A stretch of DNA of 64,000 bases, taken from NCBI RefSeq assembly GCF_003334335.1, contig NZ_QOWQ01000024.1, one strand, 5' to 3'. Below are positions 56,595 through 57,736 of the stretch, in pieces. This stretch comes from Escherichia coli (GTDB lineage: Bacteria > Pseudomonadota > Gammaproteobacteria > Enterobacterales > Enterobacteriaceae). The first letter of the stretch is position 1, and every line of letters begins with the position of its first letter. Under the pieces are notes generated by a model. The model had not been told where the DNA came from and ran no database searches. It saw nothing but the letters and a program-made list of their open reading frames with translations. A program made the position numbers and the translations under genes.

Positions 56595-57329
56595 TTAATT
56601 TTCGTGAGGAAACGCCGTAAGGTCATCAATCATTTTTTGAAGTATTGGTGAGTCCTGACCGTCACCCCATTGAAGAATTTTTGCGGTAAGCTGATGACGC
56701 GCTAGTGCATTGAGTCCCATCTTTTTAAGTTTATGGGAGATTTTACCCATGACTTTAATCTGACCGAATGCAGTTGCGTAGGTAATCATATTGCTCTGGA
56801 TAGTGCTCATTTCATCGACTAGTAATTGCGCACGAACATCCTCTTCAAGAATACTGTCCATAGCGATGTATTTCATACCCCACATAGTTTCAATTAACAT
56901 TTGAGGGAAATCAGCACAGTCCAGATCCGGCTCTTTACGGAGGCTATTTTCAAGAACGTTTAGAGCATCAGCACCTTCATCGCTGCCAAAAGGAGATTCT
57001 TCATCCCAGCAACACATATAAAGTGGATCAGTAAAATGGCACTGGAAGTTTGGGTGTGACGTTTTAACATGTAACCCAATTTCTTCATCATCAAAATAGT
57101 AGCGATCCATGAAGTTAAACTTTGGATCTTCTTGATAGCCTTTCTTCATTTTTGCGGCAATCAATTTACTGGCTTCTTTCAGACACTGTTCTTCATTATC
57201 GAACTCTTTTGTCTGGAATTTACCAATACTACCTACCTTGCCATAGTTGACAGCTAAACTATCCCCTTCGTAATCTATCCACCAAAATTTATTCGATTTT
57301 TCATCGTGATAAATAAAGCGTTTTTTCAT
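56595..57329 (-). CDS. yfeS: WGR-domain protein YfeS
   Basis: 244-aa ORF. The N-terminal ~70 aa fits the WGR-domain pattern (KFWWIDYEGDSLAVNYGKVGSIGKFQ...KMKKGYQE). The C-terminal two-thirds is uncharacterised. Confidence 0.85.
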   Translation of the reverse strand: MKKRFIYHDEKSNKFWWIDYEGDSLAVNYGKVGSIGKFQTKEFDNEEQCLKEASKLIAAKMKKGYQEDPKFNFMDRYYFDDEEIGLHVKTSHPNFQCHFTDPLYMCCWDEESPFGSDEGADALNVLENSLRKEPDLDCADFPQMLIETMWGMKYIAMDSILEEDVRAQLLVDEMSTIQSNMITYATAFGQIKVMGKISHKLKKMGLNALARHQLTAKILQWGDGQDSPILQKMIDDLTAFPHEN

Positions 57330-57361
57330 GTTACCTCCTGTAAATGCCTTCCCAAAGCGGA

Positions 57362-57736
57362 TTAATTTCCTTCCGCAGGCACCGTTTTATCCGTCTGCGC
57401 AATTAACGCATGTAAAAAAGGCTGTGCGTTCTCATCGCTCTTACCGGGGATCTTCACAATATACGGCTTCCCAGTAATCGATGACGACGAAGCAACCTTA
57501 TCAATAAACTGCTCGGCAGTGTCAATGCGGTTACGGGTATTGCCGAGCTTCAGACGCAGATGAGAAACCGCTTCATAGCAGGTATGTTCATCACCGTTGC
57601 GCACAAATATCAAATCCTTTTTCTGTGCTAATCCCTCCAGCATGGCGTTGATGCGGGCTTCTTCATGGGCAGTTAACTTCGCGTAAACGGGGAGTGTCAT
57701 TAGTAGTGTAATGACCAGACAAATGATTTTCTTCAT
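57362..57736 (-). CDS. yfeK: small secreted protein YfeK
   Basis: 124-aa ORF with signal peptide [19 protein letters not shown]. Function unknown. Confidence 0.85.

Follow-up and report, generated by a model that had tools for sequence, protein, structure and literature searches.

Do two neighbouring genes that lie on one strand and appear to share a promoter also share a function? The question is raised by yfeK and yfeS, found on the minus strand of a stretch of 64,000 nt from Escherichia coli (NCBI RefSeq assembly GCF_003334335.1, contig NZ_QOWQ01000024.1), the whole of which is called the window hereafter. An earlier note, made from the sequence alone, took the pair for an uncharacterised functional module. 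Its gene models agree with ours: yfeK (57362–57736; 124 aa, with a signal peptide) and yfeS (56595–57329; 244 aa, cytoplasmic) are open reading frames (ORFs) on the same strand, 32 nt apart, and both are indeed poorly characterised. To our knowledge, yfeS is among the few genes of E. coli K-12 for which a functional hypothesis is still lacking. The explanation we favour, with moderate confidence, is that yfeS is a horizontally acquired, strain-variable orphan cassette of an immunity-like kind, and that YfeK is not its partner.

Strain distribution, composition and transcription of yfeS

The two genes are not conserved together. When the 1434-bp yfeK–yfeS region was used as a megablast query against 5,426 complete E. 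coli genomes, yfeK was matched in all of them (5426/5426) and the yfeS part in 1373 (25%), with the alignment breaking at query positions 965–968, i.e., window positions 57371–57374. The strain-variable segment delimited by this break measures approximately 0.97 kb (56407–57373), is lacking in about 75% of E. coli and is made up of REP/BIME (repetitive extragenic palindrome/bacterial interspersed mosaic element) sequences, yfeS, the intergenic spacer and the final codons of yfeK. At empty sites (O157:H7, TUM20902), 2 nt separate the stop codon of cysM from that of yfeK, and YfeK, 122 aa long, ends in PAQ* instead of the PAEGN* found where yfeS is present.

The gene order across 53.4–61 kb of the window is cysW-cysA-cysM (plus strand), a REP-rich spacer, yfeS and yfeK (minus), pdxK (plus), crr and ptsI (both minus). 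Across Enterobacteriaceae, the short stretch that separates yfeK from the convergent cysM varies in content. This slot is empty in the majority of E. coli; 3′ of yfeK, Klebsiella carries a SnoaL_3/DUF4440 gene, Salmonella an unrelated, unannotated ORF of 116 aa and some Pseudocitrobacter yfeS. The earlier note had made its module conditional on the co-conservation of yfeK and yfeS across Enterobacteriaceae; we found the slot empty in most E. coli and filled with unrelated genes in Klebsiella and Salmonella. YfeK homologues, by contrast, occur throughout the family (Klebsiella, Salmonella, Enterobacter and other genera).

The composition of yfeS (39.2% GC; 36.7% at third codon positions) is foreign to the window, which has 53% GC. 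Its synonymous divergence (dS) is low as well. Locus L004, labelled Pseudocitrobacter, carries yfeS in the same slot; in its comparison with K-12, dS is 0.12 for yfeS, 0.55 for cysM, 0.59 for crr and 1.11 for yfeK. Between K-12 and E. coli THO-008, the values are 0.06 (yfeS), 0.30 (yfeK), 0.16–0.17 (cysM and cysA) and 0.05 (crr). The dS of yfeS is, hence, five- to nine-fold below that of yfeK. The ratio of non-synonymous to synonymous divergence is about 0.2 for yfeS and 0.01–0.13 for the flanking genes. Its foreign composition and lower dS mark yfeS as a gene of lateral spread, more recent than most of the DNA around it.

From K-12 to L004, divergence is much greater in yfeK and pdxK than in cysM and crr (in the interval 57362–58692, nucleotide identity is 68.6% for pdxK and drops to 57% at the 5′ end of yfeK), a pattern suggestive of allelic replacement or of a local hotspot of recombination. 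The 8-bp sequence GGATTAAT is present at both ends of the variable segment (56407–56414 and 57359–57366), a suggestive arrangement for which we claim no mechanism; it agrees neither with a clean target-site duplication nor with a simple deletion between repeats, and the right flank (TTCCTTCC) is unlike the empty site. The REP/BIME repeats (56415–56560) in the spacer between cysM and yfeS fall inside the variable segment, and the query had 40 matching sites in the median genome; Rfam families derived from REP sequences were matched at 56467–56549 (ES036/CssrF with 40.9 bits, over its gathering score; naRNA4 below its own). A plasmid-borne yfeS with 70% identity (NZ_CP098226.1, pZ0117EC0005-3, 50 kb) was also discarded: the record holds a frameshift-ridden copy of the chromosomal region ptsI-crr-pdxK-yfeK-yfeS-cysM-cysA with no genes annotated there, and looks like an assembly or sequence-quality artefact.

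The physical pairing of the two genes is real nonetheless. Upstream of yfeK, a sigma-E (sigma-24)-type promoter, yfeKp, can be read from the sequence (57770–57797, minus strand), with the −35 element GAAACTT (57797–57791), a spacer of 16 nt and the −10 element TCAAA (57774–57770). The 32-nt spacer between the genes (57330–57361) includes a Shine–Dalgarno sequence for yfeS, AGGAGG (57339–57334), and a scan of its minus strand found no terminator. The sigma-24 promoter yfeKp has been reported to drive a yfeK-yfeS operon (PMC11502571), yfeK is among the listed sigma-E promoters (PMC3326320), and both genes were induced along with rpoE (PMC2685091). Taken together, the predicted promoter, the terminator-free gap and the published operon and co-induction support co-transcription of yfeK and yfeS in K-12. 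A search with the strict GAACTT pattern missed yfeKp because the site reads GAAACTT; the sole exact match in the window to GAACTT-N16-TCAAA lies at 2602–2629 (plus strand), where about one is expected by chance, and may mean nothing. The earlier note had found a cytoplasmic WGR protein next to a periplasmic one an unusual combination; the pairing stands, but it is best explained as an accident of insertion.

A second regulatory site lies at the other end of yfeS. The marbox GCAACAACTGTTAAA (56562–56576, minus strand) is an exact match, with none expected in shuffled sequences, to a published MarA site, listed as yfeS><cysM in a chromatin immunoprecipitation sequencing study of enterotoxigenic E. 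coli (PMC5684230). It is located 19 nt past the yfeS stop codon, between convergent genes and within the strain-variable segment, and would be limited to strains that carry yfeS.

Homologues of YfeS and their genomic neighbours

Scanning 100,044 species, each represented by one genome, we identified 177 relatives of YfeS. With the exception of L004 and an Escherichia contig of 585 bp, the best 80 of these 177 loci all fall in other groups: Paenibacillus, Bacillus, Lysinibacillus, Exiguobacterium, Bacteroides, Dysgonomonas, Porphyromonas, Flavobacterium, Neisseria, Fusobacterium, Clostridia, spirochaetes, one Pseudomonas and one archaeal metagenome-assembled genome. Full-length relatives with 45–58% identity are patchily distributed across phyla (Bacteroidota, Bacillota, Neisseria, Fusobacterium and others). 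None of the 79 loci outside Escherichia/Pseudocitrobacter has a YfeK homologue within 5 kb of the YfeS homologue (tblastn); YfeK was matched only in the E. coli loci and in L004. Neither did clustering of the neighbours reveal a universal partner gene, as no neighbour family occurs in more than eight of 70 loci.

Many of the loci are runs of small, co-directional and mostly unique genes. The Bacteroidales homologue P0026, 54% identical to YfeS over its full length, occurs in four different arrays, all of which start with the same tyrosine recombinase of 379 aa (PF00589). These arrays hold genes for Imm10, Imm19, Barstar, SUKH_5/SMI1_KNR4, DUF4304, Macro and Cys_rich_CPCC proteins alongside many of no recognised family, and their GC fraction is 0.32–0.33 as compared to 0.41 for the recombinase. 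Nearly every cassette of these arrays is followed by a 55–70-nt repeat (TAACAA, an imperfect palindrome, then CATTA), which is found on both sides of the YfeS homologue. At locus L087, whole cassettes, e.g., the Imm10 cassette, are duplicated at 91–100% identity (3600–3899 and 6048–6347), and the intergenic repeats (3500–16300) look like attC-type recombination sites of an integron-like system.

This organisation recalls two described classes of immunity loci. Clusters called rAID-1 carry a XerD-like recombinase, at least two co-directional genes with a GC content of at most 41% and integron-like intergenic repeats (Ross et al. 2019, 10.1101/471110); the arrays with Bacteroidales homologues of YfeS are alike in their 5′ tyrosine recombinase, their co-directional low-GC cassettes and their intergenic repeats, the criteria by which we judged. 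Heterogeneous polyimmunity loci and multi-domain “polyimmunity proteins” have also been described (Zhang et al. 2012, PMC3482391). The likeness to the former is that YfeS homologues are small cytoplasmic proteins encoded among SUKH, Imm10, Imm19, Barstar, Tdi1, Imm43 and Imm11 genes.

Such company is not confined to the P0026 arrays. The neighbours are SMI1_KNR4, DUF1963, DUF4303, DUF6138 and Imm68 in Paenibacillus, a SUKH-Imm51 protein in Lysinibacillus, GAD-like/Tdi1, Imm43 and Imm11 in Bacteroides, DUF4253, DUF1963, DUF2262 and DUF4259 in Fusobacterium, and DUF6714, DUF4303 and DUF4240 in Neisseria, there on an island between gatC and gatA. In several Neisseria species (L039–L046, at about 4400–7100), this is a four-gene island that codes for a small predicted secreted protein, the YfeS homologue, DUF6714 and DUF4303. 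Using phmmer with Pfam-verified neighbours as single-sequence seeds, we found an immunity-family gene within 5 kb of the YfeS homologue in at least 22 of 76 species-representative loci, a number that is a lower bound and has no matched background. All 40 immunity-family ORFs so detected are co-directional with the YfeS homologue, and 28 of the 40 are within two genes of it.

Domains and architectures of YfeS and YfeK

Residues 9–71 of YfeS (nt 57117–57305, minus strand) match the Pfam WGR profile (PF05406; E = 1.2e-17), confirming what the earlier note had proposed for the N-terminus. The WGR fold, a beta-sheet plus helix, is present, and the characteristic aromatic-Gly-basic motif is kept throughout the YfeS family as [YFW]-G-K. 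The domain finds close known counterparts in the WGR domains of PARP1/2/3 (poly(ADP-ribose) polymerases) and of bacterial WGR proteins such as Bacteroides fragilis Q64V53 (PDB 2ra8); the ADP-ribosyltransferase catalytic domain of PARP-like enzymes was not found in YfeS.

The remainder of the protein (aa 74–244; nt 56598–57110, minus strand) is a conserved all-alpha domain, the helical fold of which could be modelled with confidence. The earlier note had recognised no motif in these approximately 170 residues, and they have no match in Pfam; a sequence-profile search of PDB returned nothing either, i.e., no solved structural relative. The alignment of the C-terminal domain gave nothing in Pfam besides one weak match to DUF4259 (PF14078), and kinship with that family was rejected: one of 22 members matched, at E = 0.064, and hhalign against a DUF4259 protein aligned just a 20-column SDEGxD motif with a probability of 3%. 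In NCBIfam, YfeS matched just the WGR N-terminus of LIC_11051. The C-terminal domain conserves the invariant polar motifs T90-S91-H92-P93, P113-F114-G115-x-D117-x-G119-x-D121 and Q190-x-K192.

A profile search over 1.84 billion cluster representatives recovered 762 clusters (at 50% identity), 326 of these at E ≤ 1e-10. Three architectures are found in the family: fusions to a WGR domain (about 240–260 aa), stand-alone domains (165–200 aa) and longer fusions; the C-terminal domain is therefore an autonomous, mobile module. One chain of 821 aa combines DUF4240, WGR, the YfeS C-terminal domain and DUF4253 (locus L104, 971–3436; metagenome contig SRR29082275_34698), and both DUF4240 and DUF4253 are families that adjoin YfeS homologues elsewhere. 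A 493-aa protein (L052) consists of an unassigned N-terminal domain, two WGR domains and the YfeS C-terminal domain, and a YfeS of 449 aa (L008) bears a C-terminal extension of 210 aa without family match; NCBIfam returned nothing for the fusion extensions of either. Tandem YfeS paralogues were seen at some loci. The 821-aa fusion, the tandem paralogues and the multi-domain fusions are what liken the family to the polyimmunity proteins of Zhang et al. Truncated copies of yfeS are common in both E. coli and Shigella, and an IS1 insertion was also seen; both fit a dispensable orphan gene.

The product of the core enterobacterial gene yfeK is a secreted protein with a Sec-type signal peptide at its N-terminus, which belongs to DUF5329 (PF17263; E = 5.6e-31) and to NCBIfam NF007646 (276.7 bits, cut-off 171). 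No structures related to YfeK by sequence were found in PDB. In E. coli O157:H7 NE 1169-1, yfeK is annotated as a frameshifted pseudogene (L001, 3498–3865), so some lineages can do without even the “core” partner.

Possible functions of YfeS

In other phyla, the YfeS family lives in polyimmunity loci, where orphan immunity genes directed at polymorphic or contact-dependent toxins are arrayed; an orphan protein of the immunity type is thus its most likely function. In the scenario we propose, a single-gene yfeS cassette would, in some members of the Escherichia/Pseudocitrobacter group, have landed between yfeK and the convergent cysM. There, transcripts started at the sigma-E promoter of yfeK would read through into yfeS, which has a strong ribosome-binding site of its own for translation. 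YfeS may shield the cytoplasm from an injected toxin, either by binding the toxin or by countering its effect, and that toxin would act on nucleic acids, as the WGR domain suggests. YfeK would be an unrelated core periplasmic protein of the envelope-stress response. Overexpression of yfeS is harmless (PMC2685091), which, like the common truncated copies, is as expected for a dispensable orphan gene.

Several observations weigh against this explanation. The E. coli gene differs from rAID-1 and polyimmunity arrays in that it is solitary, lies outside an array with no recombinase nearby and depends on a host stress promoter; elsewhere in the window, we found no immunity-family ORF. About two thirds of the species-representative loci have no recognised immunity neighbour, detection being a lower bound. 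No toxin domain was recognisable directly upstream of YfeS homologues in the loci examined, a survey that was not exhaustive, and no cognate toxin was found; the large upstream proteins, one of 1495 aa (CW_binding_2) adjacent to the homologue in L029/L096 and one of 1192 aa (HemolysinCabind) one methyltransferase gene away in L097, carry no toxin annotation. The YfeS family does not figure among the named Imm families, and neither Zhang et al. (PMC3482391) nor Ross et al. (10.1101/471110) mentions WGR. Its 24 positions that are invariant across phyla, many of them polar (TSHP, PFGxDxGxD, QxK), resemble an enzyme or ligand site rather than a fast-evolving toxin binder. Finally, a yfeS deletion mutant is sensitive to boric acid (minimal inhibitory concentration of 45–50 mM vs. 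100 mM), with partial complementation (PMC11502571), a phenotype that is not predicted by the immunity model nor explained by any other.

The WGR fold and its conserved motif invite another explanation, in which YfeS is a nucleic-acid-binding regulator or damage sensor, unrelated to inter-bacterial conflict, that would read DNA or RNA ends as in PARPs. In keeping with this, yfeS was induced after DNA damage by a restriction enzyme, but that induction follows rpoE and the yfeK promoter (PMC2685091). Stand-alone YfeS C-domain proteins often go by the name “MolR family” in databases. The E. coli proteins of the MolR type (“WGR and DUF4132”) share an N-terminal WGR domain with YfeS; however, tblastn aligns only aa 3–74 of YfeS with them, within the WGR part, and YfeS lacks DUF4132. 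The name thus appears to be an annotation carry-over, with no evidence of shared function. YfeS has no helix-turn-helix or catalytic domain, and cassette-like mobility and an array context are unexpected for a housekeeping regulator. We regard a role of this kind as unlikely.

A related idea, to which we give slightly less credence still, retains immunity but dispenses with stoichiometric binding of a toxin. The WGR domain would recognise nucleic-acid lesions or ends produced by injected nuclease or ADP-ribosylating toxins, and the invariant polar cluster of the C-terminal domain (T90-S91-H92, D117/D121, Q190/K192) would repair, shield or signal the damage. Such a mode of action would explain the conservation across phyla and why no adjacent cognate toxin is needed.

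That YfeS serves in anti-phage defence or counter-defence, rather than in toxin immunity, we hold to be improbable. The gene is low in GC, strain-variable and mobile, and WGR domains occur in phage protein families; one Bacteroidales array adjoins AbiH and prophage genes. Against this, no PADLOC defence-system model matched YfeS or YfeK at E ≤ 1, the PHROG matches of YfeS are restricted to its WGR domain, and the recurrent neighbours of YfeS homologues are toxin-immunity families, not defence systems.

The module of the earlier note, with YfeK as periplasmic sensor or effector and YfeS as its cytoplasmic counterpart in the sigma-E envelope-stress response, would account for the shared strand, the 32-nt gap, the sigma-E promoter and the co-induction with rpoE. 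It is already largely refuted by the missing co-conservation and seems to us very improbable: yfeK is retained, but yfeS missing, in about three quarters of E. coli and at the Klebsiella and Salmonella loci that were examined; no YfeK homologue accompanies YfeS in the 79 loci elsewhere; and the two genes differ in GC content as they do in dS. Like other operons of the E. coli sigma-E regulon, yfeK-yfeS is a documented sigma-E-dependent unit with a recognisable promoter, but only yfeK acts as a conserved member; yfeS, which a minority of strains carry, is a passenger of recent date. Hardly credible is the idea that YfeS is the antidote to YfeK in a toxin–immunity-like pair, prompted by the growth arrest upon induction of yfeK, but not of yfeS directly downstream (PMC2685091), because yfeK stands without a yfeS in the majority of E. 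coli strains and in every other genus examined, YfeK leaves the cytoplasm and YfeS stays in it, and overproduced secreted proteins are commonly toxic.

The two genes, the WGR annotation and the sigma-E operon were known before; what is new is that yfeK and yfeS form no module and that members of the YfeS family act like mobile cassettes within polyimmunity arrays. For annotation based on regulons and operons, the lesson is that yfeK-yfeS should not be handled as one functional unit. Until a toxin partner or an activity turns up, the practical consequences are modest. For yfeS itself, the placement of its family in polyimmunity arrays provides a concrete, testable idea, namely, protection from an injected toxin. 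More broadly, YfeS represents a non-PARP use of the WGR domain in bacteria, joined to a helical domain without solved relative, in a widespread candidate immunity family, its 762 clusters as yet unnamed in the standard catalogues.

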